Shown here: one piece after another, positions 31,979 through 53,149 of the stretch | Numbering within the stretch: position 1 is the first letter of the stretch | Layout of the letters: every line of letters begins with the position of its first letter | Translations under genes and position numbers: made by a program | The notes under the pieces: generated by a model | What the model was told of the DNA's origin: nothing | The model's database searches: none | Seen by the model: only the letters and a program-made list of their open reading frames with translations | Origin: Humibacillus sp. | GTDB lineage: Bacteria > Actinomycetota > Actinomycetes > Actinomycetales > Dermatophilaceae | DNA length: 64,000 nucleotides | NCBI GenBank assembly: GCA_030452985.1 | Contig: JAKDLG010000001.1 | Coordinates: forward strand, 40,613-104,612 | Direction: 5' to 3'

Positions 31979-33115
31979 TCAGGGGCGCCAGGCGTAGCCG
32001 GTCGGTTCGCCCGCACCGAGGTCGACGATGGCCGCGACCGGGCCACCGCCGTCGGGCCCCTGGTGTGCCGCCGACACCGAAACGAAGCAGGCGGGGTCAC
32101 CGGTCACGGATGCCGTGACGCCGCCGACGCAGGCCTTGATCTGCCGGTGCCAGTGCACGTCGGAGTCGTCGAGCATGGCGTTGCGCCGACCGTGCACCTG
32201 CCCGTTGGCGCTCACCTCGCACTTGAGGAACACGTTGACGAGCCGTCCGGCGATGTCGCTCGGGTGGGCCCGCTCGGGCAGGTCCAGGCCGGCGTCGCGG
32301 ATCGCGTCCCAGATGCCGTCGGCGTCGAGGGCGTCACGCATCACGGAGTGGCCGATGCGGTAGCGCCCGCCGATGCCGCGCACGTTGCCGACCACGACCA
32401 CCTGAGCCTGGTCGAGCTCGACACCCGAGCTGCACGAGGCGACCGACGAGAACAACGACCGGTCACGCATGATGTCGGCGTCGGTGGGCATCTCGATCTC
32501 GCCGAGCGCCACGGCGACACCGAGACCGGTGGTGCCGTTGGAGAGGTCCATCGACTCGTGGGTGTGCTCGGTCCAGACCTGGTGGCCGCGCGCCTTGGCG
32601 TCACGGATCGTGTGGATGGTGAGCAGCGGGGTCTTCGTCTGCACGTAGTGCACGTCGGCGGGGTCGGTGATGCCGGCTCGCCCCATCGCGACCTTCACGG
32701 CATCCGCCACCTTCGTCACCATGGCCACGTAGCCGATCTCCTCCGGCAGGAGGGGCTCGCTCATGGCGAACCCGACCGTCAGCCGGGGCTCGTCGCTCGG
32801 CTCGGCCTGCCCGGCGGGCACGGTCGCGAAGATCGTGGCGTGCGGGCTGATCACCCCGTCGGTGCCGCCCGACCAGACGATCGGCACCTGCCTGACCTGC
32901 TCGGCCGGGGCGCCCTTGGCGATCAACACCTCGCGGAAGGCGCGGTCGGCGATGATGCGCGTGTAGTCGTTGACGCCGCCGTTGCCCTCGGTCTTGCCGA
33001 TGACGGCGACGACGCGGGAGGCTTCCATCACTCCGTCGTCGATGAGCCGGGCCAGGCCCGACGCGTCGCTGACGGAGTCGAGCACAACCTTGCGGACCTC
33101 GATGGCTTCGGGCAC
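31979..33115 (-). CDS. Ring-opening amidohydrolase (barbiturase / cyanuric acid amidohydrolase family).
   Basis: Translation from GTG 33115 (Shine-Dalgarno AAGGTGA upstream) gives [53 protein letters not shown]..., about 378 aa. The KTEGNG motif and the size fit the AtzD/TrzD/barbiturase family. Confidence 0.75.
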
Positions 33116-33119
33116 GGGA

Positions 33120-34109
33120 TCACCTTTCGTGGGAGGGAAGAGCGGGGGCTGACGGGCTGGGCTGTCGGGGTTGAGCCCGGCCTTCGATGACCGTGCCCAC
33201 CTCACCGTCGATGGCCACAGCGATCTGGGCGAGAGAGGTAATGACCGACCACGATCCGCCGGCCCGCACGAATCGCATCGCCGCCTCGACCTTGGGGCCC
33301 ATCGAACCCGACGCGAACTGGCCCGCAGCCGCATACGCCTGCGCCTGTTCGAGACTGACCCGCCCGATCGGCGCGGCCGTCGGGGTGCCCCAGTGGATGA
33401 CGGCGTTCGGCACGTCAGTGGCGATCACCAGCACGTCGGCCTCCACGGCTCGGGCGAGCAGGGCAGCGGTGAGGTCCTTGTCGATGACGGCCTCGACGCC
33501 GTGCAGAGCGCCGTTTGCCGAGCGGGCCACCGGGATGCCGCCACCTCCCGCCGCGACCACGACGTAGCCCGCGTCTAGCAGAGTGAGCAGCGTATGCGTC
33601 TCGAGCACCTCGACCGGATCGGGGGAGGCGACCACCCGACGCCAGCCGTGTTCGCCGCGGTCCTCCCACTGCTCGCCGTGGTCGACCAGGGCCTGGGCCT
33701 GCTCGCGGGGCAGGTAGCGCCCGATCGGCTTGGTCGGGTGGGCGAAACCGGGGTCGTCGGCGCTCACGAGGGTGCGGGTCACGATCGCGGCGACGGGCGT
33801 GGCCAGGCCCCGCTCGGCGAGGGCGGCTTCCAGGGTGTCGAGGATGGTGAACCCGATCGTGGCCTGGGTCTGGGCGCCGCACCAGTCGAGCGGCACCGGT
33901 GGCACCACGGCGGCCGCCAGTTCGTTCTTCACCAGTATGTTGCCCACCTGGGGGCCGTTGCCATGGGTGAGCACGACCTCGTGGCCCGCCGCGACGAGGT
34001 CGGCCACGGGTGCCATCGCGGCTGAGATCGCGTCGTTCTGGGCCTGGGGTGTCGCACTCCCGTCGGGCCCGATCATGGCGTTGCCGCCGAGCGCCACCAC
34101 CACTCTCAC
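33120..34109 (-). CDS. arcC: Carbamate kinase.
   Basis: The ORF starts [12 protein letters not shown]...[13 protein letters not shown] and continues ...GGGGIPV...VIDKDL, which are classic carbamate kinase motifs. Confidence 0.9.
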
Positions 34110-34257
34110 GTCGCACTCACCATCGTCGGCCGGGTGTGGGCTCGCTCGTCATGGCGTGAGCATAAGCAGTAAGGCATTGTCTCCGCGATGTCACGTTGTG
34201 CCCAAACCCATCCGTCCGTGGGGGCGGCGTCGCCCTGAACGTTGCACCGGATGCCGT

Positions 34258-36240
34258 TCACAGCCAGTCGACCTCGGCCGACGTCTGGCCGCCCGAGAGC
34301 GTCGCGTAGCCGGGCCCGCGGTCGAAGAATGGCTGGTGCGCGGGTCGGGCCGCTCGCAGCTCGGCTCGCAGGGCGTCGGAGGCGACCTGGTCGATGACGG
34401 GGTGGTCCCGGTCTCCGGCGGCGATCACGCCGTAGTCTCGGCGGGCACCGTCCCGGCTGACCTTGCCCCAGCGAAGGTCGCGCTCGACCTCCTCGTAGGG
34501 CCGCTCGAGCGGGTCGCCCCAGCCGCCCCCGCCGGTGGTGCGGATGCGGATGACCTGACCGGCCAGTACCGGCTCTGCGTCAGCCAGAGCGTCGACGACG
34601 CGCTCGTCAGAGCCGCCGGGGTCGATCGTGACCTCGAAGGAGGCCCCGGCCCGACCGCCTCGGACCCCCCAGCAGGCGAGGATCGACCGGTCGGCGATCG
34701 ACATGAGGTGTGCGTCGCGCAGCATCCGGATCTGCTTCTCGTAGCCGAGGCCCCCCCGATGTCGCCCGGGGCCTCCGGAATCGACGGCGAGCCCGAGACG
34801 TTCGACCAGGAAGGGGAAGCGGCTCTCGGTGAACTCCGTGGGCAAATTGCGGCTGTCGGGCACCACGTGGATGGTGTCCTCACCGTCGGCGTAGGGGCGG
34901 CCACCGGAGCCGCCCCCGAGCACCTCCCGCATGAGGTAGTCGTTGTCGTCTCTGTCCTTGCCGTAGACGCCGGTGTAGCGGATCGTCTCCTGGTCGGCCG
35001 GCATCTGCCCGTCGACCGCCTTGGCGACGACGCCGGTCAGCACCCCCAGCAGCCGCAGGATGACGAAGGTGCGCGCGTTGGTGGGAGCCGGGTAGATCGG
35101 GGTGAGCAACGTGCCCTTCTCGGGGAACCGCATCTCGATCAGGGGCACGACCCCCTCGTTGACGTCGAGCTGCGCCATCCGCTCCGGCGTGTCGGCGAGG
35201 TTGCGCAGGATGGGGGCGAGCCACTTCTTGAGAAAGTTGCCGCCGACGTAGTCGCCGCAGTGGTTGATCGGGCCTTTCGCCTGTGCCGACGTGCCGGTGA
35301 AGTCGATGATGATCCTCGGTCCGCCGTCGGGATAGCGGTCGGGGTGGCCGGGGCCTCCCGTCGAGGTCTTGGTCAGGGTGATTCGCTGGGCGTGCAGCCG
35401 CGGCTCGTCGACGCCGTCGTGCTCGGCGTAGTCCTCCCAGACGTACGTGCCGTCGGGGATCTTCGAGAGGATCTCGCGGCGATAGGTCTCGGTCGTTCGA
35501 TCGAGGATCTCGTCGAACGCGGCCTCGACGGCGGGGCGGCCGTAGCGCTCGAATAGCTCGGCGAGCCGCCGTGCCCCCATCAGACAGGCCGAGCACTCCG
35601 CGTCGAGGTCGGCCGCCAGGCTCTCCGGCATCCGGCTGTTTCGCGTCATGATCCGTAGGGCGGCGCGGTTGGGAACCCCCTTGTCCCACAACTTGATCGG
35701 CGGGACCATCAGGCCCTCCTCGTAGACCGAGCGGGCGTGGCTGGGCATCGAGCCGGGCACGGCGCCGCCGATGTCGTCGTGGTGGCCGAAAGCCTGCACG
35801 AAGGCGACGACTGCACCGTCGCAGAAGACGGGAACCGTGACGCAGAGGTCGGGCAGGTGGCCGATGCCGCCTTCCGACTCGTAGACGTCGTTGTGGAAGA
35901 AGATGTCGCCATCGGCCATCTCGGCGAGGGGGAAGTCACGCGCGACCGGGTGCACGAGGGCGCTGTAGGAGCGCCCCGTCAGCTTGCGCAGCTGACGGTC
36001 GTGGATGCCGGCGCGAAAGTCATGGGCGTCGCGGATCATCGGCGAGCGTGACGTGCGCCCGATGGCGGTCTCCACCTCCAGCTCGACGCTCGCCAGGGTG
36101 CCCTCGACGATCTCGACGAGGATGGGGTCGACCGCGGTGCCCTCGGGGGTGAGCCGGTTGCCATGCTCGTAGGCGGTCGGCAGCCCCGCCGGGTTGACGG
36201 GGGAGCTCGAGCCGCCACGGGCCTCATTGACCGGTTCCAT
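34258..36240 (-). CDS. Hydantoinase B / oxoprolinase family protein (HyuB-like).
   Basis: Motifs DPILVEIVEGTLASVE...MIRDAHDFRAGI...ESEGGIGHLPD and the C-terminal GGGGWGDPLERP are present. The start is at Met 36240, overlapping the hyuA-like gene by 17 nt. Confidence 0.85.
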   Translation of the reverse strand: MEPVNEARGGSSSPVNPAGLPTAYEHGNRLTPEGTAVDPILVEIVEGTLASVELEVETAIGRTSRSPMIRDAHDFRAGIHDRQLRKLTGRSYSALVHPVARDFPLAEMADGDIFFHNDVYESEGGIGHLPDLCVTVPVFCDGAVVAFVQAFGHHDDIGGAVPGSMPSHARSVYEEGLMVPPIKLWDKGVPNRAALRIMTRNSRMPESLAADLDAECSACLMGARRLAELFERYGRPAVEAAFDEILDRTTETYRREILSKIPDGTYVWEDYAEHDGVDEPRLHAQRITLTKTSTGGPGHPDRYPDGGPRIIIDFTGTSAQAKGPINHCGDYVGGNFLKKWLAPILRNLADTPERMAQLDVNEGVVPLIEMRFPEKGTLLTPIYPAPTNARTFVILRLLGVLTGVVAKAVDGQMPADQETIRYTGVYGKDRDDNDYLMREVLGGGSGGRPYADGEDTIHVVPDSRNLPTEFTESRFPFLVERLGLAVDSGGPGRHRGGLGYEKQIRMLRDAHLMSIADRSILACWGVRGGRAGASFEVTIDPGGSDERVVDALADAEPVLAGQVIRIRTTGGGGWGDPLERPYEEVERDLRWGKVSRDGARRDYGVIAAGDRDHPVIDQVASDALRAELRAARPAHQPFFDRGPGYATLSGGQTSAEVDWL

Positions 36241-38395
36241 GGCCGACCTCCTTGGTGATGACGAGGTTGCCGAGGTCGTCGACCCGGATCGCGAAGCCGG
36301 GGTGCACCGGCACCGTCGAGCCGAACTCCTCAACAATGGCCGGTCCCACTACCCTGTCACCGGACAGCAGAGCCGGACGCCACCACACGCCGGTGTCCAG
36401 ATAACCCGCGTCGGCGTCGAAACAGACCGGTCGGACGCTGCGGTGAGCGCGCTCACGCACGGTGACACCGTCACCTGATCCGGACCGGTCGATCGGCCGT
36501 GGCTCCGGTCGGCTGATCGGCCCCACTCCGGAGACGCGGAGGTTGACCCACTCGACCTGCTGCGTGGGGTCAGACCGGAAGTCGTAGCCGTAGAGGGCGC
36601 GGTGCTCCTCGTGGAAGCGCAGGGCGATGACGTCGGCGTAATCCACGTCGACGTCGCCGTCGGGAGCGGCGACGGGCACCTCGTAGGCCTGCCCGAAGTA
36701 GCGCAGGTCGACCGTACGCGCGAATCGCTGCACCGACCGCGGGAACCCTTCAGCGTCAAGGGCCTTCGTGGCCCGGGCGGTGAGGTCGTCGAACGACCTC
36801 TGCACCGCCGCGTGGTCGAGCGCGTGGTGACGGGCGACCGACGTCTGCACGTAGTCGTTCTTGACGTCGACGGTGAGCAGCCCGAACGCCGACACGTTGC
36901 CGGGGTTCTGGGGTACGAGTACGCCGGCAAGGCCGAGGATGTCGACCAGGCGACAGGCCAGGAGCGAACCGGAGCCGCCGAAGGTGGTGAGCATGAAGTC
37001 GCGCACGTCGAGGCCGCGTTTGACGCTCACCTGGCGCAGGGCGTTGGCCTGGTTCCAGGCCGAGATCTCGAGGATGCCGGCCGCGCACTGCGCCAGCCCG
37101 AGGCCGAGGCGCCCCGCCAGCTGCTGGATGCCGGCCCGCGCGGCCTCGACGTCGATCGGGATCTCGCCACCGAGCAGGTGCCCCGGGATACGGCCGAGCA
37201 CCAGGTGGGCATCGGTGATCGTCGGGTCGCTCCCACCCTTGCCGTAGCAGAGGGGCCCCGGCTCGGCCCCGGCCGACTGCGGACCGACCTTGAGCGAGCC
37301 CTGGGGAGAGACCCACGCGATCGACCCTCCGCCGGCGCCGACGGTGACGACGTCGATCATCGGGATCTTGCTGGGGTAGGCCCCGATCGACCCCTCGGTC
37401 GTCAGGGTCGGTTCGCCGGCGAGCACGACGGAGACGTCGGTCGAGGTGCCGCCGCCGTCGCAGGTCAGCACTCGGTCGAACCCGGCCCGGCTGGCGATGA
37501 GGCCGGCGCCGAGAGCGCCCGCCGCCGGTCCGGACAGCACGGTGGTGATCGGCTGGTGCACGACCTCGTCGGCCGACAGCACGCCGCCGTTGGACTTCAT
37601 GATGTGAAACGGCACATGCGCGCTCAGGGTCGCGGCAGTCGGTTGCGCGGGCGTGTGCTCTACCGGCTCGGGCTCTTCGGCGGTTAGCGCCGACAACCGC
37701 TCGGCGATGGTGGCGACGTAGCGCGACACGGTGGGCTTCACCGCGGCGTCGAGCAGGGTCGTCATGGAGCGCTCGTACTCGCGGTACTCGCGCAGCACCT
37801 CGGAGCTGATCGAGACGACCGCCTCGGGGTGCTCGCGGCTCAACACCTCCCGCATCGCGATCTCGTGGCGGTCGTCGGCGTAGGAGTGCAGCAGGCAGAC
37901 ACCGATCGTCGTGATATCTCGCTCGCGAAACCATCGCGCCGCTGCGACGGCGCTGGCCTCGTCGAACGGACGGACCTCGCGACCCTCGAAGTCGAGACGG
38001 CCGCCCACGGTTCTGACGTGGTCGGCCGCGACAATGCGGGGCGGCTTGACCCAGAAGTAGGAGTTGCCGTAGCCGTCGGGCACCGACTGCCGGGCGATCT
38101 CGAGGATGAACTTGTAGCCCTCCGTTGTGATGAAGCCGAGCGACCCGGTCTTGCCTTCGAGCAGCTGGTTCGTGGCGACGGTCGTTCCGTGCGAGACAGA
38201 CGTGACGTCGTGGCTCTCGGCCCCCATGATGCCGAGCACCTTGTGAATCCCGGCCATGAAGCCGTCGGCCGGGTTGCCCGGCGTCGACGGTGTCTTGGTG
38301 GTCACCATCTCCCCTGAGTCTTCGTCGAGCGCCACGACGTCGGTGAAGGTGCCGCCGGTGTCGATCCCGATACGGATGCGGCTCACCGAGCTCAC
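36224..38395 (-). CDS. Hydantoinase A / oxoprolinase family protein (HyuA-like).
   Basis: The N-terminus IRIGIDTGGTFTDVV, with later DGGGTSTDV and GAGGGSIAWV, shows ASKHA-fold ATPase motifs. The start is ambiguous among GTG 38386, GTG 38395 and TTG 38404, inside a 9-bp duplication. Confidence 0.85.
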   Translation of the reverse strand: MSSVSRIRIGIDTGGTFTDVVALDEDSGEMVTTKTPSTPGNPADGFMAGIHKVLGIMGAESHDVTSVSHGTTVATNQLLEGKTGSLGFITTEGYKFILEIARQSVPDGYGNSYFWVKPPRIVAADHVRTVGGRLDFEGREVRPFDEASAVAAARWFRERDITTIGVCLLHSYADDRHEIAMREVLSREHPEAVVSISSEVLREYREYERSMTTLLDAAVKPTVSRYVATIAERLSALTAEEPEPVEHTPAQPTAATLSAHVPFHIMKSNGGVLSADEVVHQPITTVLSGPAAGALGAGLIASRAGFDRVLTCDGGGTSTDVSVVLAGEPTLTTEGSIGAYPSKIPMIDVVTVGAGGGSIAWVSPQGSLKVGPQSAGAEPGPLCYGKGGSDPTITDAHLVLGRIPGHLLGGEIPIDVEAARAGIQQLAGRLGLGLAQCAAGILEISAWNQANALRQVSVKRGLDVRDFMLTTFGGSGSLLACRLVDILGLAGVLVPQNPGNVSAFGLLTVDVKNDYVQTSVARHHALDHAAVQRSFDDLTARATKALDAEGFPRSVQRFARTVDLRYFGQAYEVPVAAPDGDVDVDYADVIALRFHEEHRALYGYDFRSDPTQQVEWVNLRVSGVGPISRPEPRPIDRSGSGDGVTVRERAHRSVRPVCFDADAGYLDTGVWWRPALLSGDRVVGPAIVEEFGSTVPVHPGFAIRVDDLGNLVITKEVGHGTGQ

Positions 38396-38513: not shown

Positions 38514-39161
38514 TCACGACCCGCGGATGCTGCAGTCGACCCGTCCTGATGCGCTGGCCGCCTTCACCACGCGGTTGCCGTTGAGCAGGCGGCAGCCCAG
38601 CGTGGACCCCGGTGTGCGGGCTGTTGCCGTGACCCGGACGGTCTGGACAGCTGCCGCCACGTCACTGGATGCCGGGAGGCTGCCCCGGTACGGCAACGAG
38701 ACCTGCACCGTCTCGACACCGAGGGCGGAGCCCATGACGAGGTCGGCCTGGCCCGAGCCGTCGACCTCGATGATCAGGTTGGTGAGGGAGTCAGGTGCCC
38801 CGGCCTGGCCCTGGCCAGCGGCAGGAACGTTGGCCTCGGCTCGCTCGGCTGCCACGACCTGCTCGCCGACCCCGGGCCGCTGAGGAGGCGTCTCACCGAT
38901 GGCAGACCGGCCCGAGACGCCGATGACCAGCGCGCCGAGCACGGCCACGGCCGTGACTGCGGCCGCCAGCCTCAGGGGGGCGGGGGTGCCTCGCCGCTGG
39001 GCGGCGTCACGGTCGAGATCGTGGTCCGGGACCAGGGGTGGCACCTCAGCGCCAGGTGGCAGACCCGGTGGCAGTCCCGTGCGCGAGGTCGCGGGGCGGT
39101 TCGCCGGTCGAGCGGCATCCGGAGTGCGGCGAGCGCGGGTGTGCTGGTCAAGGTCGCTCAT
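38514..39161 (-). CDS. Membrane-anchored hypothetical protein, MmpS-like C-terminal domain suspected.
   Basis: It has a Pro/Arg-rich N-terminus and one TM helix (LRLAAAVTAVAVLGALVIGV). The C-terminal domain ends LGCRLLNGNRVVKAASASGRVDCSI, a two-Cys pattern reminiscent of MmpS. Confidence 0.4.
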   Translation of the reverse strand: MSDLDQHTRARRTPDAARPANRPATSRTGLPPGLPPGAEVPPLVPDHDLDRDAAQRRGTPAPLRLAAAVTAVAVLGALVIGVSGRSAIGETPPQRPGVGEQVVAAERAEANVPAAGQGQAGAPDSLTNLIIEVDGSGQADLVMGSALGVETVQVSLPYRGSLPASSDVAAAVQTVRVTATARTPGSTLGCRLLNGNRVVKAASASGRVDCSIRGS

Positions 39162-39224: not shown

Positions 39225-39551
39225 CTACCCGGCCTCGTCGCGTCGGGGATGAGCCTGGAGTACGAGGTCCCAGTCGCTCCTCGTCATGACGATCGCAGCC
39301 CTTGCTCCCTTCGGAAAGGGCATTGCGGCCGCCACGGCGATGTCCTCGTCGTCAGCCACGGTGGGCAGGGTGCCGGCCGTGGCCTCGCCCAGGCAGTTCG
39401 ACCAGAAGTCGTGAGAGTCCCCGAGGATCAGGGGCTGCCCGCTGTCCGTGCGCAGCTCGTCACCTCGAACGCGTACCGTGAACTGCCCAGATGTCAGCTC
39501 CGGCACCTCGGTCAGCTCTCGCCCGAACAGGTCGAGCCACAGCACGGGCAC
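39225..39551 (-). CDS. Hypothetical cytoplasmic protein (108 aa), no recognised family.
   Basis: The GTG start is preceded by GGAGG 6 nt upstream. Composition is acidic and coding-like (DLFGRELTEVPELTSGQFTVRVRGDELRTDSGQPLILGDSHDFW). Confidence 0.45.
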   Translation of the reverse strand: MPVLWLDLFGRELTEVPELTSGQFTVRVRGDELRTDSGQPLILGDSHDFWSNCLGEATAGTLPTVADDEDIAVAAAMPFPKGARAAIVMTRSDWDLVLQAHPRRDEAG

Positions 39552-40497: not shown

Positions 40498-42941
40498 TCA
40501 TGGCGTGGGCTCCTCGGCTCGGTCGGCAGGCTCTGACCGGGGGCTCGCACGGCGCAGCGGTGTGATCTCGCCAGCAGCGTACCGACGACGAAGCCCCCAC
40601 AGCTCGGAGGGGGAGATCGGCATCCGGGTGATCGCGAAGCCCTCGGCGTCTTCGATAGCGGAGGCGATGACGGCCGAGACGGGGATGCAGCCCGCCTCGC
40701 CGGCACCCTTGATGCCCAGAGGATTCAGAGGGGACGGGGTCTCGAGGTGGTCGGTCTCGATGGTCGGTACCTCTGACGCGTAGGGCATCAGGAAATCCAT
40801 GAAGGACGCGTTGAGCAGCTGGCCCGACTCGTCGTAAACCATCCGCTCGTAGAGCGCGCCACCGACGCCCTGGGCCACGCCACCGTGCACCTGGCCCTCG
40901 ACGATCAACGGGTTGATCATCGGGCCGCAGTCATGCACGACGCAGTAGCGCAGGATGCGGATTTCGGCTGTGACCGGGTCGGTCTCGACGATCGCGGCGT
41001 GCATCCCGTTGGCGAAGGTGGCCTGCGTAGGTGAGTAGAAGTCCTTACCTTCGAGCCCGGGCTCGTCGCCCGCGGCGACCGGTGGGCGGTCGGGGTCGAA
41101 GGTGCCCGCGAACTGGGTTGCGGCCTGGGCCGCCTCGTCGAAGGCGTAGCGCAGGGGGTTGCTCAGCACCGACACCGTGCCCAGCGTCATCGAAGCCGAC
41201 GGGGCACCCTTGACCTGTACCGTGCCGTCGACGATCTCGAGGTCGTCGGCGGAGACCTCGAGGGCATCGGCCGCGATGCGCAGCGCCTTGGCCCGCACCT
41301 GACGGGCGGCCAAAGCGACGGCGCTGCCGCTCATCACCGCGGCCCGCGAGGCGAAGGTGCCCACGGCATAACCCATCTTGCGCGTGTCGCCGGTGGTCAC
41401 GAACACGTCTTCCATACGAACCCCCAGCTCGTCGGCAACGATCTGGGCGAACACCGTCTCGTGACCCTGGCCCTGTGAGGTCAGCCCGATCGACACATTC
41501 ACGCGGCCGCTCGTCTCGACCTGAACGTGGCTGCCCTCGTAGGGCCCGACCCCGGTTCCCTCGACGTAGCAACCGATCCCGAGACCGATCTTGCGGCCCT
41601 GGGCCGTCGCGGCCGCACGTTCGGTCGCGAAGTCGTCCCAGCCCACGAGCGCCTTGAGCTTCGACAAGGTGGCGGGGAAGTCACCGGAGTCGTACCTCAA
41701 CGGGCGTCCGTCCTGGAAGAGCAGCCCGTGGTCGTAGGGCATCTCGCTCGGCAGAATGAAGTTGCGGGCCCGCACCTCTGCCCGGTCGAGGCCGAGCCGG
41801 TCGGCGATGGCGTCCATCGTGCGCTCCATCGCGAAGCACCCCTGCGGTCGGCCCGCTCCCCGATAGGGCGTGACCAGAACGGTGTTGGTGTAGAGCGACC
41901 AGAACTTGACCCGGTAGGCGCCCGGCTTGTAGGGCCCGAGCAGCTGGGTCGAGGTGATGATCGGCACGATGATGCCGTAGGGGGTGTATGCGCCGTTGTC
42001 GTGCCAGAACTTCACGTCGAGCCCGAGCAGGTGACCGTCGTCGTCGAAGCCGACCGTCACGGTGTGCAGCTGACCTCGCTCGTGAGCGGCCGCGACGAAG
42101 TGCTCGCGCCGGTCCTCGGTCCACTTGACCGGGTGACCCAACCGCCGCGCAGCCCACGGCACGAGCACCTCCTCCGGCCATGGGTGCATGATCTTCACGC
42201 CGAAGCCGCCGCCGACATCAGGCGCTATGCACTCGACCTTCGCCAGCGGCAGGTCGAGCTTGGCCGCCACGGCAGCACGCACACCCGTCGAGGTCTGGGT
42301 GGAGGAGTACATCCGCAGCTCGTCGCGCTCGTCGTCCCACCGGGCGTAGACGCCCCGTCCCTCCAGGGGCGTCGAGGCGCTGCGTTCGATGTCGAGCTCA
42401 AGGGTGAGGGTGTGCGGCGCGCTCGCCAGAGCTGCGTCGACGTCGCCGACAACCTGGGTGAGGTGAGCGGCCACGTTGCCGGGAACGTCGGAGTGCACGC
42501 GCGCTGCCCCGTCACGGGCCGTCTCGATACCGACGACCACCGGCAGCGGTTCGTAGCGCACGCGGATGCGTTGACAAGCGTCCTCGGCGACATAGCGGTC
42601 GGTGGCCACGACCATCACGACCGGTTCGCCGACGTGGTTGACCTCGTCGCGGGCCAAGGCGTATCCGGTGCGCCCGTGGGTGAGGGCCGGGTGCGGGATC
42701 AGCAGCGGGAGCGGCTCACCCACCTTGCCCGGCAGGTCGTCGTGGGCGTAGATGCCGAGCACCCCGTCGAGCTCGAAGGCGTCGTCGGCGTCGATGTCGA
42801 CGACCCGGGCGTGGGCGTGCGGGCTGCGCACGAAAGCCGCCGCGAGGGCGCCGTGACCGAGGTCGTCGAGGTAGCGGCCTCCACCCGTGACGAGTCGGGG
42901 GTCCTCCTTGCGTTTGATCGGGGCGCCGAACAGCCTCGTGC

Positions 42942-42945
<4 letters not shown>
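40498..42945 (-). CDS. Molybdopterin-binding large subunit of a xanthine-dehydrogenase-family hydroxylase (CoxL form II-like).
   Basis: An 815-aa ORF starting STRLFGAPIKRKEDPRLVTGGGRYLDD. The active-site loop is PYRGAGRPQG, not the AYXCSFR loop of true CO dehydrogenases. Confidence 0.9.
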
Positions 42946-43516
<571 letters not shown>

Positions 43517-43520
<4 letters not shown>

Positions 43521-44473
43521 CGACGTCCACCCCCCAGCCCCTCGAACGCCGCGTTCGTTCTCGAACTCACCGTTGCAACAGCGCTTTCGTGCACGAACGC
43601 TGCGTTCGATCGGCTGATGGCGATTGGGAGAGCGCGGCGGGTGAGTTCGGCGACGAGCATCCGGCGGTAGTCGGCGCTCGCGTGGATGTCGGTCTCGGGG
43701 GCTACGTGTTCCCGCACGGCCTCGGCCGCCTGGTCGAGCGCGCTGCCGAACCCTGCGTCGGCCAGCTCTCGGCCGCCCAGTGCCGGCGTGAGGTCGAGCA
43801 CGCTGGGTACGTCGGTGACCGACACGAACGAGGCGGCGGCGGCCGAGACCACCCCGTCGCTCACCGTCACCCGCACGGCGACGCCGGCGAGCGCGTAGTC
43901 ACCGCTGCGCCGCGCCGACTCGGCGAACGCGGTGCCGGTGCCGGGGGGCATCCGGTTGAACCGGGTTGCGACTGCGAGCTCGTCGGGTGCGAGCACGGTC
44001 TCGAGGGCGCCGAGGAAGAAGTGCTGCCAACCGACCTCACGGATGCCGTGAGGCCCGACCACCTCGACGGTGCCGTCGCAGAGCGCCAGCACCGCCGGCA
44101 TCTCGCCCGCTGCGTCGGCATGCGCGATCGACCCCACGGTGGTGCCCCGGTTGCGGATGGCCGGGTGGGCGACGTTGACGACTGCCTGTCGCAGCAGGGG
44201 AAGCGCCGCATGCGTCGAGTCTGACCGCTCCAGACCCGAGTGGCGCACCAGGGCGCCGACGCGCACGGAGTCCGAAGTGATCTCGATGTCGTCGAGCCCT
44301 GTGACGTGGTTGATGTCGATGAGGTGGCCCGGTGACGCGAGGCGCATGTTGAGGATCGGGATGAGGCTTTGCCCGCCGGCCAGCACCTTGCCGTCGTGGC
44401 CGACCTCGGCGAGAACGGCGACGGCCTCCTCGACCGAGCGGGGCGCGTGGTACTCGAACGGAGCGGGCTTCAT
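43517..44473 (-). CDS. FAD-binding medium subunit (CoxM-like), with a C-terminal tail encoded by a palindromic repeat element.
   Basis: The ORF starts MKPAPFEYHAPRSVEEAVAVL...LAGGQSLIPILNMRL. The last ~35 aa (AISRSNAAFVHESAVATVSSRTNAAFEGLGGGRR) are translated from the palindrome-rich segment 43530-43620. Confidence 0.85.
43543..43609. repeat. Two copies of the 15-bp palindrome CGAACGCNGCGTTCG plus the 12-bp palindrome TTCGTGCACGAA (diverged family B element).
   Basis: Read directly: 43543-43557, 43595-43609 and 43587-43598. Confidence 0.8.
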
Positions 44474-46175: not shown

Positions 46176-46243
46176 CACCCAGTCGAGTGGCCACTTTCGA
46201 ACGCTCGGGGGGTCAACCCCACCCAGTCGAGTGGCCACTTTCG
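46176..46243. repeat. Two identical 24-bp cores (CACCCAGTCGAGTGGCCACTTTCG) spaced 44 bp apart (repeat family A).
   Basis: Copies at 46176-46199 and 46220-46243 were read directly. They are in inverse orientation relative to the 27.7 and 48.1 kb arrays. Confidence 0.85.
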
Positions 46244-46297
46244 TACGGTCGGGTGACCGTGCCCCCACCAGGGCGGCCGGGGTGAGCGGCATCCGGC

Positions 46298-46978
46298 TCA
46301 CGCCTGCAGGCCGCGACGGATGAGCGCGACCACCTCGGCGGCAGGTCGAACGTCGCCGTACGAGCGGTACACGACGTGCAGGGTCGCGTTGTGCTCTCGA
46401 TCGGTGTTGACGGCGCAACCGTCCGCCACGAGCACGACGCGGTAGTCGAGCGTACTGGCGTCGCGAACGCTGGCCTCGACGCAGACGTTGGTGACCGTGC
46501 CCGTCAAGATGACGGTGTCGATGCCCTGCTCGGCCAGTAGCTCGGGCAGGTCGCTACGGCCGGGGAAGAAGGCGCTGCTGGCCGTCTTCTCGGCCACGAG
46601 GTCGCCAGGCTCGACCTCCAGGCCGGCCCAGAGCCGTTCGACAGGCCGGCCGGAGCCGCCTGAACGCGCGTACCCCTGCGCAACCTCGTCGCCGTAGAAC
46701 TCCCGAGCTCTCGCCGAGGGCACGACGGGTCCGGGCACGACCCAGGCGACCGTTCCCCCGGCCCGGCGCAGCTCGTGGGCGAGCAGATTGACGGTCGGCA
46801 CGATGGCGCGGCAGCGAAGCGACTGCTCGACGAAGAACGGGACGAGGTCGACCACCACCAAGGCGGTACGGAGCGGGTCGATGCGTTCGAACGCGTGCCG
46901 GCGCCCGCGCCTCTCCTCGTGGCGGCGGTACTCCCGTTCGTCGATCGACCAGTGGAGCGCCGCCGAGTCATCGTTCAC
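46298..46978 (-). CDS. Isochorismatase-family cysteine hydrolase (the fold of RutB, BiuH and NicF).
   Basis: Motifs ALVVVDLVPFF and the catalytic Cys region LTGTVTNVCVEASVRDA are present. The GTG start makes a GTGA overlap with the monooxygenase stop. Confidence 0.8.
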   Translation of the reverse strand: MNDDSAALHWSIDEREYRRHEERRGRRHAFERIDPLRTALVVVDLVPFFVEQSLRCRAIVPTVNLLAHELRRAGGTVAWVVPGPVVPSARAREFYGDEVAQGYARSGGSGRPVERLWAGLEVEPGDLVAEKTASSAFFPGRSDLPELLAEQGIDTVILTGTVTNVCVEASVRDASTLDYRVVLVADGCAVNTDREHNATLHVVYRSYGDVRPAAEVVALIRRGLQA

Positions 46979-48132: not shown

Positions 48133-48208
48133 CGACTGTATGAAGGTGGCCATTCGACTGTACGGAAGTGGCCATTCGACTGTACGGAAGTGGCCACTCG
48201 ACTGGGGG
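48133..48208. repeat. 22-bp tandem repeat, 3.5 units (CGACTGTACGGAAGTGGCCAYT; repeat family A).
   Basis: Units at 48133-48154, 48155-48176 and 48177-48198, plus a partial unit at 48199-48208, were read directly. The array ends 4 nt from the PucR stop codon. Confidence 0.85.
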
Positions 48209-48212
48209 CGGG

Positions 48213-49925
48213 TCAGAGGCCGCGCATCCGGTGCACCTTGAGGGCGAGGGCCAGCGCGAGCCGCAGCTCGGGGTCTGTCGTGAACGGGCCGAGCATCCTC
48301 TCCAGCTTGCCGATGCGGTAGCGCAGCGTGTTGTAGTGGAAGAAGAGGCGCCGGGCCGTCTCGGCGACGTTGAGGTTCGTGTCGATGAGCAGGCCGAGCG
48401 TCTGGCGCAGGTCGGCGTACTCGGCCTGGTCGTCGGTGGCGAGCGGGCCCAGCGTGTCAGTCACGAAACGCCGCAGGTCGGCGCCGTCGGGCACGAGCGC
48501 GAGAAGCCGGTAGATGCCGAGACCGTCGACATGGGTCAGCGCGCCGTGGCCGTGCAGCTGACGGCCGACGGTGACCGCCGACTGCGCCTCGTCGTAGGCC
48601 TGGGGCAGGTCTGCGGGCGACGTGATCAGGCGAGACACCCCGGCCGAGAAGCTGCGGCGGCCACCGCCACCGTCTCCGCGCACCACGCGCACGAGATCGT
48701 GGACCGAGCGCAGGACGCGGTCGGTGTCGGCCTCGGCCGGCACGCCCACCAGAGCGACGACCTCGCGGCTGAAACCCATGACCGGAGAGCGGCTCTCCCG
48801 GACTGCCATCGCGTGGGTCCACGCCCGGGTGAACCGCTCCTGAAGGAAACGCACCTCCTCCGCGCCGCGGCTCGACCGCTCGTCGTCCTCGTCGGTCTCG
48901 GCCACGACGACCACCATCGGGCGGTCGATGTCCCACCCGAGCGACTGCGCGTGCGCAACGGCGTCAGCCACCGACCCGGCCCGGCCGGCGAGGGCGTCGC
49001 GCAGAAACTCGGCCCGGTACTTGCTCTCCACCGCCGCCACGGCCTGGTCCTTGGTGATGGCCAGGGCCGCTACCGTGGCCGCGCGCTCGAGCAGGTGCAC
49101 GTCATCGACCGTGAGGGGGCGCCGGCTGCAGAAGGCGACGAGCAGGCCGTGGTCGAAGTGACCGGCGGCGATGCGGACCGCGGCGCGGCCGGCGGTGGGG
49201 CCGTCGGGGCGGGCGCCGATCGGCTCCGACTCCGTCAGCAGCCGCCCCGACCGGTCGAAACAGGGCAGGGATGCCGCGTGCTCGCGTTCGGGTACCGAGC
49301 CCGCCGCGGCGATGACCCGCCCGTCGGTGGTGGTCACCATCGCCGCCCCGCCGATGAAGCCGACCACCCGTTCGCACAGGTCATCGAGCGAACCACCGGC
49401 CAGGACGATCCGCACGAGAGCGCGATCGGCATCGTCGAGCCGGCGCAGCAGCGACGTCTGGTGCTCGAGGATGGCCTCGAGCACCTCGGTGGTGAACCGA
49501 GGCAGGCGCTCGTCGGGGAGCTCGATGAGCGGCAGGGTGCTGGCGTGCTCTGCGGGCCTCATGAAGGGTTCGGCCCGGTCGGCCGAGGCGGTGCCCACCA
49601 CGAGACCGGCCGCGCCGGCCCGGGCCAACCGGCCCATCAGACACTCTCGACCTGAGGCGGTGGGCCCGGCTGCGCTCAGCAGCGTCGTTTCGTCGGTGAT
49701 GACGAGCCGGTGGAGCAGGTCGATCTGCTCGCTGTGGACGGGGAGCACCGTGCTGACGCGGTCGACCGCGACATCGAGGTCGCCGACGCAGACGTGCATG
49801 ACGCCACCTCGACTCGCCGCCAGACCTGCGATGCGACGCAAGGGGATGCCGGACACGTCGGAATCGGTGACGGAAGCTGGCAAAAATGCAGCACGGGGAG
49901 GGGCATCGTTGGCAACATTGGCCAT
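48213..49925 (-). CDS. PucR-family transcriptional regulator (purine catabolism regulator-like).
   Basis: The C-terminal PucR HTH reads NVAETARRLFFHYNTLRYRIGKLERMLG. The large N-terminal sensor region is typical of the family. Confidence 0.85.
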   Translation of the reverse strand: MANVANDAPPRAAFLPASVTDSDVSGIPLRRIAGLAASRGGVMHVCVGDLDVAVDRVSTVLPVHSEQIDLLHRLVITDETTLLSAAGPTASGRECLMGRLARAGAAGLVVGTASADRAEPFMRPAEHASTLPLIELPDERLPRFTTEVLEAILEHQTSLLRRLDDADRALVRIVLAGGSLDDLCERVVGFIGGAAMVTTTDGRVIAAAGSVPEREHAASLPCFDRSGRLLTESEPIGARPDGPTAGRAAVRIAAGHFDHGLLVAFCSRRPLTVDDVHLLERAATVAALAITKDQAVAAVESKYRAEFLRDALAGRAGSVADAVAHAQSLGWDIDRPMVVVVAETDEDDERSSRGAEEVRFLQERFTRAWTHAMAVRESRSPVMGFSREVVALVGVPAEADTDRVLRSVHDLVRVVRGDGGGGRRSFSAGVSRLITSPADLPQAYDEAQSAVTVGRQLHGHGALTHVDGLGIYRLLALVPDGADLRRFVTDTLGPLATDDQAEYADLRQTLGLLIDTNLNVAETARRLFFHYNTLRYRIGKLERMLGPFTTDPELRLALALALKVHRMRGL

Positions 49926-50137
49926 GCGCGGACTGTACCCGGCCTCGGTAGCGTCGGCTCACGATGCGGGTCAGGTCGGCCCCGATCAGACGGGAGCGCC
50001 GCGTGAGCACACGGGTCGAGACACCGACCGTCGTGTCGTGGCCGGCCGCTGTCTCGCCGCTCGTCGCACCGACGCCGGTGACCTCATGACCTTTGGCGCC
50101 GGCGGGGTGCGGCTGCCCGGACACGCGGAGGCCATCG

Positions 50138-53100
50138 ATGGTTGACCATGTCGAGCTCAGACCGGGCGGCTACCACGACTCCGTGAGCCTGATGCAGGTC
50201 TCTCGGGCGGTAGCGACGGCGCCCGGGGTGGAGGCGGCGCAGGTCGCGATGGCGACCGACCTCAACCTCGAGGTGATCGCCTCCATGGGCTTCACGGTGC
50301 CCCCGGGCGCGGGGCTCAATGACCTCGTCGTCGTGCTGCGTGGTGACGCCGCCGCCGTTGACGCCGGCCTGGAGGCGCTGGAGTCTGCCTTCGCCGCGCT
50401 CCACTCCGCGGCGGCACGGTCGACCGGATTCGGCGAGCCACCGCAGCCCCGCACCCTCGGCGGCGCGGTCGCCCTGTCGCAGGCCAACCTCGCCCTCGTG
50501 TCGGTTCCCGGCCCCCACGCCGCAGTCGAGGCGCTCGACGCGATCCGGGCCGGCGTCAGCGTCATGGTGTTCTCCGACAACGTGCCCGTCGAGCAGGAGG
50601 TGCAGCTCAAGGCCACCGCCGCTGAGCGGGGCGTGCTCGTCATGGGCCCCGACTGCGGCACCGCGGTGGTCGGCGGGGTGGCTCTCGGGTTCGCCAATGT
50701 CGTGCGGGAGGGGTCGGTGGGCATCGTGGCGGCCTCCGGCACCGGGGCCCAGCAGGTCATGTGCCTGCTCGATGCGGCCGGCGTCGGTATCAGCCACTGC
50801 CTCGGCGTCGGTGGACGCGACCTGACCGGAGAGGTGGGTGGTCGTTCGACCCGGCAGGCGCTGGCGGTTCTCGCCACGGACCCGCTCACCACCTCGATCA
50901 TCGTGGTCTCCAAGCCACCGGCCCCACGGGTCCTCGCCGCGATCGAGGCGGATGCCGTCGGGCTGGGCAAGCCGGTCAGCTGGGCGATCCTGGGGCCGGG
51001 GCGGCCCGACCTGACCAGCGTGGTCGAGTCGGTGCTTGCCGATACGGGGACCGGGCCAACCGGCTGGCCGAACCGCAAGGTCGAGTGGCCCACCGGGCAG
51101 GGGGAGTGGCCAGCGGCCCTGCCCGGCTCGCTGCGGGGACTGTTCTGCGGGGGCACGCTGGCCGACGAGGCGATGCTGATCGCCACCGAGTACGTGGGCG
51201 GCATCCGGTCGAACATCGCGCTGTCGCCCGACCTGGCCCTCGGGCCCGACCTGCGCCACGAGGGCCATCTCGTCATCGACTTCGGCGACGACGCGCTGAC
51301 GCGGGGGAGGGCGCACCCCATGATCGACCCCTCTCTCCGGCTGGCACGCATCGCCACCGAGGCAGCCGACCCCACCTGCGGAGTGTTGCTGCTCGACCTG
51401 GTGCTGGGTCACGGCGCCCACCCCGACCCGGCACCTGACCTGGCCGCAGCCATCGCGTCGGCCCGCCGGGTGGCGGCCGACGGCGGGCGCGAGCTGCCCG
51501 TGGTCGTCTCGCTCATCGGCACCGGCGCCGACCCCCAGGGCTGGGCGCGCTCGGCCGACCTGCTCGCTGCCGCCGGGGCCGCTGTGCTGCTCTCCAACGC
51601 CGAAGCCACCCGGTACGCCCTGAACCTGCTGGGCCACCGAACGCGGCCGCATCAGGTGCCCCCGTCGCAGCCTGAGGCCGGTCAGCGCCCTGTCGCCGCT
51701 GTGGAGACTGTCTTCCCGGGCACGACAGGCGTGCAGATGCCGCTCGAAGGCGAGGTCACGGTGGCCACGGCAGGCGCGGCTGCCCTGACGGATGCCCTTC
51801 GTGAACAAGGGATCTCTGTCACGCAGGCGAGCTGGCAGCCGCCGGTTACTGGCGCCGAGAGCGACCTCTGGGCAGTGTCGACCGACATCCGGCGCGACAC
51901 CGCCAACGCCCAGGCGCTGGCCCGCATGACGGCAGCCGGCGCCGAACTCGTCGACGTGCGGCCCGCGAGTGAAGCCCTCGGTCTCGGGCGCGGCACCTTT
52001 CTGCACGCCGGTCCGCCCATCACCTTCGCGCGGGCATCGGGGCCGTTGCGGGGGGCGCTCATCGGGGCCATGCTGCTCGAGGGGCTGGCTGACACCGCGG
52101 AGGAGGCCGAGACCGCCTTGACCCGCGGCGAGGGCATCGTGCTCGAACCGTGCCACCACCGCGGCGCGGTGGGCCCGATGGCCGGGGTCATCTCACCGTC
52201 GATGTGGGTCTACGAGCTGCGCGACGAGGTGCACGGCAACACCTCCTGGTGCTCGCTCAACGAGGGCCTCGGCAAGGTGCTGCGCTACGGAGCCTACGGC
52301 CCGGAGGTCATCGACCGGCTGCGCTGGATGGGCGCGGTGCTCGGGCCGATCCTGCAGCAGGCGGTGCGGGCGCGGCTGCACCAACAGGGACCGATCGACG
52401 TCAAGGCGATCATCGCTGCGATGCTGCAGATGGGCGACGAGGGGCACAACCGCAACCGGGCCGGGTCGTTGTTGCTGCTGCGCGAGCTGCTGCCCACGAT
52501 GATCACCGCCGACGCGCCCAGCAGCGACATCGCCGAGGCGGTCCGCTTCTCGGGGGCCAACGAGCACTTCTTCCTCAACCTCGGGATGCCGGCCTGCAAG
52601 CTGGCGACCGTGGCGGCCCACGGCATCCCGGGCTGCACGGTCGTCACGACGATGGCCCGCAACGGCACCGACTTCGGCATCCGGGTCTCCGGCACGGGCG
52701 ATGCCTGGTTCACTGCTCCCGCGGGCACCCCCGAGGGGCTCTTCCTGGGTGACTACGGCCCGGCTGACGCCAACCCCGACATCGGCGACTCGGCGATCAC
52801 CGAGACCGCCGGAATCGGTGGGTTCGCCATGGCAGCGGCGCCCGCCATCGTGCGCTTCGTCGGGGGCGACGTGGCGTTCGCCCTGCGCACCACTGCGACG
52901 ATGTACGAGATCACGGTGGGTGAGCACCCGGCCTACCAGGTACCGATTCTCGAGTTCCGGGGCACCCCGACCGGCATCGACGTCGTCGCGGTGGCCCGCA
53001 CCGGCATCCTGCCGCAGATCAACACGGGGATGGCAGGGCGAGTCGCCGGTACCGGTCAGGTCGGAGCGGGTCTGGTGACACCGCCCGCCGCCTGCTTCAC

Positions 53101-53149
53101 CCAGGCCCTCGCGGCGCTGGCCGCCCTGACCGAGCGGCCCCACCTCTGA
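50138..53149 (+). CDS. Fusion protein: FdrA-like (succinyl-CoA-synthetase-alpha-like) N-terminal half plus a DUF1116 (YlbE-like) C-terminal half.
   Basis: The N-terminus MVDHVELRPGGYHDSVSLMQVSR resembles E. coli FdrA. The C-terminal half carries LHAGPPI, EPCHHRGAVGPMAG, LNEGLGKVLRYGAYG and GDSAITETAGIGGFAMAAAP, matching my recollection of YlbE/DUF1116. A GGAGG lies 8 nt upstream of ATG 50138. Confidence 0.75.
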   Translation: MVDHVELRPGGYHDSVSLMQVSRAVATAPGVEAAQVAMATDLNLEVIASMGFTVPPGAGLNDLVVVLRGDAAAVDAGLEALESAFAALHSAAARSTGFGEPPQPRTLGGAVALSQANLALVSVPGPHAAVEALDAIRAGVSVMVFSDNVPVEQEVQLKATAAERGVLVMGPDCGTAVVGGVALGFANVVREGSVGIVAASGTGAQQVMCLLDAAGVGISHCLGVGGRDLTGEVGGRSTRQALAVLATDPLTTSIIVVSKPPAPRVLAAIEADAVGLGKPVSWAILGPGRPDLTSVVESVLADTGTGPTGWPNRKVEWPTGQGEWPAALPGSLRGLFCGGTLADEAMLIATEYVGGIRSNIALSPDLALGPDLRHEGHLVIDFGDDALTRGRAHPMIDPSLRLARIATEAADPTCGVLLLDLVLGHGAHPDPAPDLAAAIASARRVAADGGRELPVVVSLIGTGADPQGWARSADLLAAAGAAVLLSNAEATRYALNLLGHRTRPHQVPPSQPEAGQRPVAAVETVFPGTTGVQMPLEGEVTVATAGAAALTDALREQGISVTQASWQPPVTGAESDLWAVSTDIRRDTANAQALARMTAAGAELVDVRPASEALGLGRGTFLHAGPPITFARASGPLRGALIGAMLLEGLADTAEEAETALTRGEGIVLEPCHHRGAVGPMAGVISPSMWVYELRDEVHGNTSWCSLNEGLGKVLRYGAYGPEVIDRLRWMGAVLGPILQQAVRARLHQQGPIDVKAIIAAMLQMGDEGHNRNRAGSLLLLRELLPTMITADAPSSDIAEAVRFSGANEHFFLNLGMPACKLATVAAHGIPGCTVVTTMARNGTDFGIRVSGTGDAWFTAPAGTPEGLFLGDYGPADANPDIGDSAITETAGIGGFAMAAAPAIVRFVGGDVAFALRTTATMYEITVGEHPAYQVPILEFRGTPTGIDVVAVARTGILPQINTGMAGRVAGTGQVGAGLVTPPAACFTQALAALAALTERPHL

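Follow-up and report, generated by a model that had tools for sequence, protein, structure and literature searches.

A 64,000-nucleotide (nt) stretch of a Humibacillus sp. genome (contig JAKDLG010000001.1), herein referred to as the window, contains at positions 31979-53149 a block of 14 co-directional genes on the minus strand and one divergent gene on the plus strand. Judging by its genes, this block can be taken with good confidence as an oxidative pyrimidine cluster for uracil, and probably also for thymine. The complete scheme proposed here, leading from the permease to malonate and including a phosphorolytic lower branch, is moderately favored. We also lean toward reading the block as a cluster widespread in actinobacteria, here in a trimmed and remodeled Intrasporangiaceae (Terracoccus-like) copy. 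All coordinates are window positions, and families were assigned by Pfam and NCBIfam, which confirmed the gene content, coordinates, and families given for all 15 genes in an earlier first-pass annotation of this DNA. The features on which the pathway is built are the following; the counts refer to related loci described below.

31979..33115, minus strand: barbiturase, converting barbiturate to ureidomalonate (N-malonylurea); PF09663, full length
33120..34109, minus strand: carbamate kinase of the ArcC/AllK type; TIGR00746, 341 bits
34258..36240, minus strand: hydantoinase B/oxoprolinase subunit (HydB), ATP-dependent lactamase family; PF02538, full length
36224..38380, minus strand: hydantoinase A subunit (HydA); PF05378, PF01968, and PF19278
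39813..40487, minus strand: CoxG-like subunit; PF06240; found in 53 of 53 loci
40498..42945, minus strand: molybdopterin large subunit CoxL, candidate uracil/thymine dehydrogenase; three Mo-cofactor-binding domains
42942..43520, minus strand: CoxS, [2Fe-2S] small subunit; PF01799 and PF00111; GTGA overlap at each end
43517..44473, minus strand: CoxM, FAD-binding medium subunit; PF00941 and PF03450
44506..45987, minus strand: NCS2 nucleobase permease of the pyrimidine type; PF00860
48213..49925, minus strand: PucR-family transcriptional regulator; PF13556 and PF17853; found in 40 of 52 loci
50003..50089, plus strand: allH remnant of 28 codons, encoding ...WPAAVSPL..., as at the AllH N-terminus in relatives
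50138..53149, plus strand: AllF(FdrA)-AllG fusion, proposed ureidomalonate:phosphate carbamoyltransferase; PF06545 (AllG), PF00549, and PF27530 (AllF_N)

The amidohydrolase at 31979-33115 covers positions 1-358 of the 358 in PF09663 (471 bits) and scores 566 bits with TIGR02714. Its match to the solved barbiturase of Rhodococcus erythropolis (5HWE) reaches 652 bits with 82% identity, compared with at most 314 bits for any cyanuric acid hydrolase. Barbiturases (group VI) are parted from the cyanuric acid hydrolase AtzD by the signature Asn194, His324, Lys328, Val348, and Ser/Ala349 in barbiturase (Bar) numbering (Peat et al., 2013; PMC3758960). In the window protein, all five positions (N193, H323, K327, V347, and S348) are of the barbiturase type, and the residues N, H, K, V, and S do not match the AtzD signature of Arg195, Thr321, Arg325, Gly345, and Gly346. 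By its sequence, this protein is a true barbiturase and not a cyanuric acid hydrolase; the first-pass annotation had asked for a placement between the barbiturase and AtzD/TrzD clades. The window barbiturase nevertheless scores above the cut-off of NF052395, the model that NCBIfam provides as equivalog of cyanuric acid amidohydrolase (464 bits vs. 360), and the conflicting public names of barbiturases can be ascribed to this. The same model passes its cut-off on homologues carrying the full barbiturase signature (P0001-P0240), and many barbiturases are publicly named cyanuric acid hydrolases.

The carbamate kinase gene (arcC) is separated from the barbiturase gene (bar) by 4 nt. Its product scores 314 bits with PRK12352 (cut-off 266) and is 41% identical to AllK of Escherichia coli. 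Additionally, in a metagenomic protein of 490 amino acids (P0208), a complete barbiturase is preceded in frame by ~120 residues from the C-terminus of a carbamate kinase. This protein is either a real arcC-bar fusion or the result of a lost stop codon or a miscalled start.

The active-site loop of CoxL reads TPYRGAGR, as had been noted earlier (PYRGAGR, a non-CO loop), and the Cu-binding cysteine loop VAYRCSFR of form I CO dehydrogenases is absent. CoxL fails the form I CO dehydrogenase model TIGR02416 (450 bits vs. a cut-off of 991), as well as all the xanthine dehydrogenase equivalogs XdhA, PucD, and XdhB (271-406 bits vs. cut-offs of 780-916). Its nearest solved structures are 6-hydroxypseudooxynicotine dehydrogenase (7DQX) and quinoline 2-oxidoreductase (1T3Q), at about 1e-137; the solved xanthine dehydrogenases match at about 1e-48. 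The earlier expectation that the molybdenum enzyme is not a xanthine dehydrogenase was thus upheld by both the failed models and the far closer N-heterocycle hydroxylases. The NCBIfam model NF040766 ("CODH_aero_grp5") gives CoxL 1524 bits, and the public annotation is aerobic CO dehydrogenase large subunit. No accessory genes coxD, coxE, or coxF were found by Pfam scans of the block genes. NF040766 drives the mass naming of CoxL homologues (P0241-P0360) as CO dehydrogenases; the CuSMo loop is absent from these proteins, and their context is that of nucleobase catabolism. The neighboring permease scores higher with the NCBIfam model for RutG (358 bits) than with those for uracil permease (252 bits) and xanthine permease (155 bits), all under the cut-offs. 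By guilt by association, CoxMSLG is a candidate for the long-orphan uracil/thymine dehydrogenase (EC 1.17.99.4), and its partnership with a nucleobase permease and a barbiturase implies C6 of uracil as the target. The strongest evidence for this assignment is an orthologous cluster around bar in the R. erythropolis group.

Biochemical knowledge of the oxidative pyrimidine pathway dates back to the 1950s. The documented route leads from uracil through barbiturate and ureidomalonate to urea and malonate (PMC3758960). Barbiturase and ureidomalonase were characterized in JCM3132, a strain belonging to the R. erythropolis group (pathway summary in PMC3758960). A protein 99% identical to the crystallized barbiturase was found in Rhodococcus qingshengii/erythropolis. 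Upstream of bar, the gene order in Rhodococcus is XdhC, PucR, permease, and then, in the opposite direction, carboxyltransferase, coenzyme A (CoA)-transferase, PucR, and uracil phosphoribosyltransferase (UPRTase). From bar onward, the order is bar, an amidase gene overlapping the bar stop codon, aminotransferase, permease, coxM, coxS, coxL, coxG, hydA, hydB, and NmrA, so that coxL, together with coxM, coxS, and coxG, lies 5 kb from bar. Identities between the window and the Rhodococcus cluster are 68-71% for the permease (two permeases), 63% for CoxL, 62% for CoxS, 72% for HydA, and 80% for Bar. Neither allFGH nor arcC was found within 10 kb of the Rhodococcus bar. The observations that the first-pass annotation had named as contrary to a pyrimidine pathway were not made, because the barbiturase is not of the AtzD type, the molybdenum enzyme is not a xanthine dehydrogenase, and the Rhodococcus group has an orthologous cluster; on these same grounds the oxidative pyrimidine assignment is retained. 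A class-III (omega-) aminotransferase gene, with the amidase gene next to bar on one side and the permease/cox genes on the other (L085, positions 12754-13977; also in L086), was found in Rhodococcus only. It hints at an amino or semialdehyde intermediate outside the textbook pathway, e.g., beta-alanine/malonate semialdehyde.

A scan of a genome collection with CoxL as the query yielded 80 actinobacterial loci with 72-88% identity, for which gene maps were built by tblastn. These loci span Intrasporangiaceae, Nocardioidaceae, Streptomyces, Embleya, Jiangella, Actinomadura, and others. Presence was counted only over loci with enough flanking sequence (51-53 of the 80). The conserved order begins with the divergent genes allH<-allF<-allG, followed by pucR, permease, coxM, coxS, coxL, and coxG. 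After coxG come a gene for a CN-hydrolase or an amidase-signature enzyme and then hydA and hydB. The end of the cluster is formed variably by an NmrA-like gene, a deaminase, a family-III CoA-transferase, and a carboxyltransferase of the AccD/AccA type, and then by arcC and bar. The full downstream end is seen in Knoellia (hydA-hydB-NmrA-x-deaminase-CoA-transferase-carboxyltransferase-arcC-bar, followed by purH), and a minimal cluster in Blastococcus (L166; hydA-hydB-NmrA...arcC-bar-permease-coxMSLG). The first-pass annotation had suggested a neighborhood survey of bar, arcC, and allFG. In this survey, arcC directly adjoined bar in 14 of 17 independent bar neighborhoods, and allFG were present in 45 of 52 loci from several actinobacterial orders. 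No further conserved gene family was found in the 80 loci apart from XdhC, present in three of them. In neither the window nor the 80 loci do allFGH occur together with allantoin or ureidoglycolate genes, and no urease or urea carboxylase was found in any cluster examined.

The CN-hydrolase (PF00795), whose nearest solved relatives include the omega-amidase Nit2, was found in 40 of 53 loci, and an amidase-signature enzyme in 4 more. In Knoellia and Rhodococcus, the carboxyltransferase of the cluster, a fused AccD/AccA protein, is of the acetyl-CoA/malonyl-CoA type, and the CoA_transf_3 protein resembles dicarboxylate CoA-transferases. Both types fit malonate as the carbon end product.

The divergent gene of the block encodes a protein in which AllF and AllG are fused; the present Pfam name of DUF1116 is oxamate carbamoyltransferase subunit AllG. 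The AllF part is 37% identical to E. coli AllF over 531 amino acids and scores 403 bits with NF004760, just under the cut-off of 433. The AllG part is 47% identical to E. coli AllG over 404 amino acids (PF06545, 315 bits). The fused open reading frame (ORF) is intact, with a third-position GC content (GC3) of 0.90. In E. coli, AllFGH carries out phosphorolysis of oxalurate, an N-acylurea, to oxamate and carbamoyl phosphate, from which AllK then makes ATP (PMC11326118).

In the proposed pathway, the RutG-like NCS2 permease would import the base, and PucR would control the cluster. The Mo/FAD/FeS hydroxylase CoxMSLG would then oxidize C6 of uracil to form barbiturate, as the gene context suggests, and the barbiturase would open the ring to give ureidomalonate, a step well supported by sequence. 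By analogy with oxalurate, AllF-AllG may move the carbamoyl group of ureidomalonate to phosphate, forming malonamate and carbamoyl phosphate, and the carbamate kinase would convert the latter and ADP to ATP, NH3, and CO2. In the relatives, the CN-hydrolase or amidase-signature enzyme would hydrolyze malonamate, the family-III CoA-transferase would activate malonate, and the AccD/AccA-type carboxyltransferase would carry out decarboxylation. Phosphorolysis is favored because arcC adjoins bar, allHFG are syntenic, and allantoin and urease genes are missing, as well as because the urea-forming Rhodococcus has a bar-adjacent amidase and no nearby allFGH or arcC. For the cluster family as a whole, this analogy-based lower branch may or may not operate, with about equal likelihood; for the window copy, which has lost allH, it is somewhat less likely to.

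HydAB is a near-constant partner of the molybdenum enzyme. The hydA gene follows coxMSLG in 46 of 53 loci and in Rhodococcus, hydAB are also present in the minimal Blastococcus cluster, and HydB is 75-89% identical in the related loci. The two subunits in the window are complete, containing the Hydantoinase_A (plus N and C) and Hydantoinase_B domains, and the nearest solved structure to HydA is N-methylhydantoinase (7HK5, E-value 1.6e-135). HydAB fails the subfamilies defined by substrate: it scores 475 bits with caprolactamase and 196 bits with acetophenone carboxylase, for which the cut-offs are 1000. The best guess is that HydAB opens a second ring, e.g., that of 5-methylbarbiturate formed from thymine. 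Barbiturase is not known to accept 5-methylbarbiturate.

Several observations weigh against this scheme, above all against its lower branch. First, allH is deleted in the window, leaving the 28-codon scar at 50003-50089, a loss that the first-pass annotation overlooked. Collinear blastn blocks show that ~850 nt are missing between pucR and fdrA in comparison with Terrabacter and Pedococcus, and the gap between these genes is 212 nt in the window vs. 746-1669 nt in every other locus. Searches of the 64 kb with E. coli AllH and eight actinobacterial AllH proteins found no AllH (YlbF, PF11392), only artefacts antisense to pucR and the scar. Of 51 related loci, 48 were found by a more sensitive search to encode AllH directly upstream of fdrA. 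When allH was left out in E. coli, allFG brought back only ~7% of oxamate formation, and the ΔallH mutant formed 1.2 mM oxamate vs. 17.7 mM. Second, no CN-hydrolase, amidase, CoA-transferase, carboxyltransferase, NmrA-like gene, or deaminase was found anywhere in the 64 kb, and that the window lacks the amidase gene and the malonate-CoA genes seen in full clusters had likewise gone unnoticed. Third, ureidomalonate is proposed as an AllFG substrate by pure analogy, and the clusters of Blastococcus (L166) and Streptomyces (L038) contain arcC-bar with no allFG within 10 kb. Fourth, the amidase located after coxG in some allFGH-containing clusters (L048-type) belongs to the PRK07486 subfamily, as does the bar-adjacent amidase of Rhodococcus. 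This shared subfamily suggests that the amidase may simply act as a ureidomalonase, in which case phosphorolysis would not be needed. Finally, the ATP-dependent HydAB has no role in the textbook pathway, and its constant presence undercuts the label "ATP-yielding" given to the lower branch in the first-pass annotation, which had left it out of account. Should HydAB be a step of this one linear route, it would cancel the ATP gain and leave the pathway ATP-neutral. The earlier suggestion of ureidomalonate phosphorolysis is therefore retained in part: synteny over about 50 loci and the contrast with Rhodococcus favor it, and the Blastococcus and Streptomyces arcC-bar clusters do not. Rather than a net gain of ATP, the chief advantage is probably that nitrogen can be released without urea or urease. 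Urease-independent ammonia release was named by Kim and Kim as the pay-off of oxamate transcarbamylase (OXTCase) in urease-negative enterics (PMC11326118). That the cluster jointly represents a urea-free actinobacterial pathway variant, the genes for uracil/thymine dehydrogenase, and an ATP-dependent HydAB step is put forward tentatively, at somewhat short of an even chance.

Four genes of the block and two groups of repeats are specific to the lineage of the window.

38514..39161, minus strand: orf215, 215 amino acids, predicted membrane anchor; no Pfam match
39225..39551, minus strand: orf108, 108 amino acids; no Pfam match; GC3 0.83
46180..46245, plus strand: two copies of a dispersed 22-bp repeat, CAGTCGAGTGGCCACTT(T/C)CG(T/A)A, lying downstream of the isochorismatase gene; chance expectation, none
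46298..46978, minus strand: isochorismatase-family cysteine hydrolase, lineage-specific insert; PF00857
46975..48069, minus strand: FAD monooxygenase, PRK06753/HpxO-like under the cut-offs, lineage-specific insert; PF01494
48139..48204, minus strand: the 22-bp repeat in three tandem copies, located upstream of the monooxygenase gene and inverted relative to those at 46180-46245

The slot of the relatives' CN-hydrolase or amidase is occupied in the window by these two ORFs. Of them, orf215 is absent from the 80 loci and found only in the metagenome-assembled genome (MAG) L087 (78% identity); orf108 is likewise conserved only there (82%). Both ORFs had been described as orphans, which holds as far as family matches are concerned and fails in that both are conserved at the amino acid level in this closest relative. 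In the orf215 product, a Pro/Ala-rich N-terminus is combined with a single predicted membrane helix and with a domain of ~90 residues at the C-terminus that contains two cysteines. By eye, it is MmpS-like, with no Pfam match, and an MMPL gene is present in the Intrasporangium calvum cluster (L083). Either ORF as a divergent AllH was rejected, the hhalign probability being <1%.

The isochorismatase and the monooxygenase had been counted as members of the catabolic system. Neither was found in any of the 53 related loci with enough flank (0/53 for each), and dispersed repeats lie at the flanks of the pair, which is best regarded as a lineage-specific insertion between pucR and the permease gene. 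In a metagenome scan, relatives of the monooxygenase (66-67% identity) adjoined no cluster gene and no isochorismatase gene. The isochorismatase has weak NCBIfam matches, including BiuH and RutB, that are far under the cut-offs (BiuH, 49 bits vs. 370), and its nearest solved structure is 4L07 (3e-14). Conjecturally, it may stand in as the amidase for malonamate or ureidomalonate. The 22-bp repeat, CAGTCGAGTGGCCACTTCCGTA with the palindromic core AGTGGCCACT, is present in nine copies at four intergenic sites of the 64 kb (18881-18902, 27684-27772, 46180-46245, and 48139-48204) and is absent from the relatives; public assemblies of the same genome (L088 and L089) break at it. A role as a PucR operator tying the inserted pair to the cluster was considered and rejected. 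The repeat is a dispersed element, since further copies lie near purN and upstream of pcrA, the promoters of relatives lack it, and assemblies break at it. It may be an element like a repetitive extragenic palindrome (REP) or a miniature inverted-repeat transposable element (MITE), or a site for a global DNA-binding protein.

Among the alternatives to the scheme with phosphorolysis, the classic hydrolytic branch is the one that survives best, being possible though rather unlikely. Here, ureidomalonate would be split to urea and malonate, with the isochorismatase in the window, or the CN-hydrolase or amidase in the relatives, as the ureidomalonase; AllF-AllG and ArcC would serve another N-acylurea, e.g., oxalurate, or be in decay in this lineage. 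This route is biochemically documented (PMC3758960), and the Rhodococcus amidase gene, which overlaps bar, has no allFGH nearby. Moreover, the amidase of the L048-type clusters shares its NCBIfam subfamily with the Rhodococcus enzyme, allH is deleted in the window, and some arcC-bar clusters have no allFG nearby. However, arcC would be left without a role if urea is the product, and yet it stands at bar in 14 of 17 neighborhoods. The clusters examined contain no urease or urea carboxylase, allHFG are syntenic in 45 of 52 loci with no allantoin genes, and the fused allF-allG ORF is intact with a GC3 of 0.90.

Alternatively, the core of the cluster (permease, CoxMSLG, HydAB, CN-hydrolase, and AllFGH) could degrade another cyclic ureide of the hydantoin or parabanate type to oxalurate, with barbiturase and ArcC as a side branch. 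The N-methylhydantoinase-like HydAB together with the CN-hydrolase does resemble a hydantoinase/carbamoylase pair, oxalurate is the sole proven substrate of AllFGH, and the textbook uracil route leaves HydAB without a role. Such a function is nevertheless improbable, given that the barbiturase, the pyrimidine-type permease, and the malonate-type CoA-transferase and carboxyltransferase share operons, that UPRTase is encoded beside bar in Rhodococcus, and that no ureidoglycolate dehydrogenase or allantoinase was found in the loci.

A purine (xanthine/urate) catabolic cluster is very improbable. PucR, the NCS2 "xanthine/uracil" permease, and the weak similarity of the monooxygenase to the urate hydroxylase HpxO would fit it, but CoxL is far under the xanthine dehydrogenase cut-offs and much closer to the quinoline- and nicotine-pathway hydroxylases (1e-137 vs. 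1e-48 for the solved xanthine dehydrogenases), the permease is nearer to RutG and uracil permease than to PbuX, the monooxygenase belongs to the lineage-specific insert, and the amidohydrolase is a barbiturase. Degradation of cyanuric acid and biuret by an AtzD-type hydrolase and a BiuH-like isochorismatase, suggested by the NF052395 score (464 bits vs. 360) and the weak BiuH match, is hardly tenable in view of the 82% identity to barbiturase with a bit score double that for any cyanuric acid hydrolase, the five of five barbiturase-type specificity positions, the BiuH score of 49 bits vs. 370, and the lack of conservation of the isochorismatase. Equally far-fetched is an aerobic CO dehydrogenase, the publicly annotated function, for which NF040766 (1524 bits) and the database names speak, but which lacks the AYRCSFR loop, fails TIGR02416, has no coxDEF in the block, and has a nucleobase permease, HydAB, and barbiturase as invariant operon partners.

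The GTGA start/stop overlaps reported earlier for coxM/coxS, coxS/coxL, and monooxygenase/isochorismatase are present in the sequence, and hydA and hydB overlap by 17 nt, the hydB start codon lying inside the end of hydA. The earlier term "island" does not hold in the compositional sense, the GC content being 0.68-0.73 (~70%) over the whole window with no break at the block. The flanking genes are housekeeping ones (guaA, pcrA, sucCD, purN, purH, and ABC exporters), and the bar-purH junction is common to Knoellia, Intrasporangium, and a close MAG. Because of this shared junction, the locus is best read as an old chromosomal site rather than an acquired island.

An Rfam scan of the window found no riboswitch inside the block; the sole match was a ZMP/ZTP riboswitch (RF01750) at 28927-29003 on the plus strand (43.3 bits, above the gathering score), ahead of purH. 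Its position indicates that the purH ORF called from 28788 is too long at the 5' end. A consensus promoter and terminator scan gave nothing exceeding the shuffled background. Between the convergent bar and EamA genes, positions 31892-31978 contain a long near-perfect inverted repeat (…CACCGTCGAGAGGACAGTTCGTG…CACGAACTGTCCTTTCGACGGTG…), which is probably a bidirectional terminator, though the T-tract-based scan gave no call.

The cluster is a variant of the known oxidative pyrimidine pathway with consequences for annotation. The searchable literature contains no description of it, no genes for uracil dehydrogenase, and no link between AllFGH and barbiturate; of this pathway, only barbiturase is tied there to a gene. 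Thousands of actinobacterial genomes and metagenome contigs carry the cluster, which supplies candidate genes for uracil/thymine dehydrogenase, for the steps after ureidomalonate, and for malonate disposal. If true, the proposed lower branch would mean that the AllFGH class of transcarbamylases, discovered recently, has a second physiological substrate. The misannotations "CO dehydrogenase" and "cyanuric acid amidohydrolase" distort metagenomic inference on CO oxidation and s-triazine degradation, and naming by NF040766 could inflate metagenomic counts of CO oxidizers. The window itself is a natural allH-deletion variant, also without the usual amidase, and could reveal which parts of the cluster are dispensable.

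Among known systems, the cyanuric acid pathway (AtzD/TrzD and BiuH) shares with the block a hydrolase from the family with the Toblerone fold and a nearby isochorismatase-fold hydrolase; it differs in that the specificity residues in the window are of the barbiturase type and the isochorismatase is a poor BiuH match that is not conserved in the cluster. To the HyuA/HyuB family (N-methylhydantoinase, 5-oxoprolinase, and caprolactamase), HydAB is linked by two full-length subunits, with N-methylhydantoinase as the nearest solved enzyme, but the window lacks a creatinine or oxoproline context. Quinoline 2-oxidoreductase and 6-hydroxypseudooxynicotine dehydrogenase have the same L/M/S architecture and hydroxylate an electrophilic ring carbon beside nitrogen. 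Their match of about E-value 1e-137 does not amount to orthology, and the partners in the window are instead a nucleobase permease and a barbiturase. The AllFGH-AllK system of the anaerobic allantoin route in E. coli is homologous (AllF, 37%; AllG, 47%; carbamate kinase, 41%), and the proposed chemistry would be alike, with phosphorolysis of an N-acylurea to an amide and carbamoyl phosphate and then ATP formation. In contrast to E. coli, AllF and AllG are fused in the window and AllH is deleted, the kinase gene belongs to a different operon, next to bar on the opposite strand and at a distance of 16 kb, and the proposed substrate, N-malonylurea, would be one CH2 longer than oxalurate. The closest counterpart is the R. 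erythropolis JCM3132 pathway (barbiturase, EC 3.5.2.1; ureidomalonase, EC 3.5.1.95), whose barbiturase is orthologous and carries the same specificity signature. In the R. erythropolis group, bar is surrounded by orthologous genes for the permease, CoxMSLG, HydAB, PucR, the CoA-transferase, and the carboxyltransferase; this group has an amidase gene overlapping bar, an aminotransferase, and UPRTase, whereas the window has arcC at bar and the divergent allF-allG.

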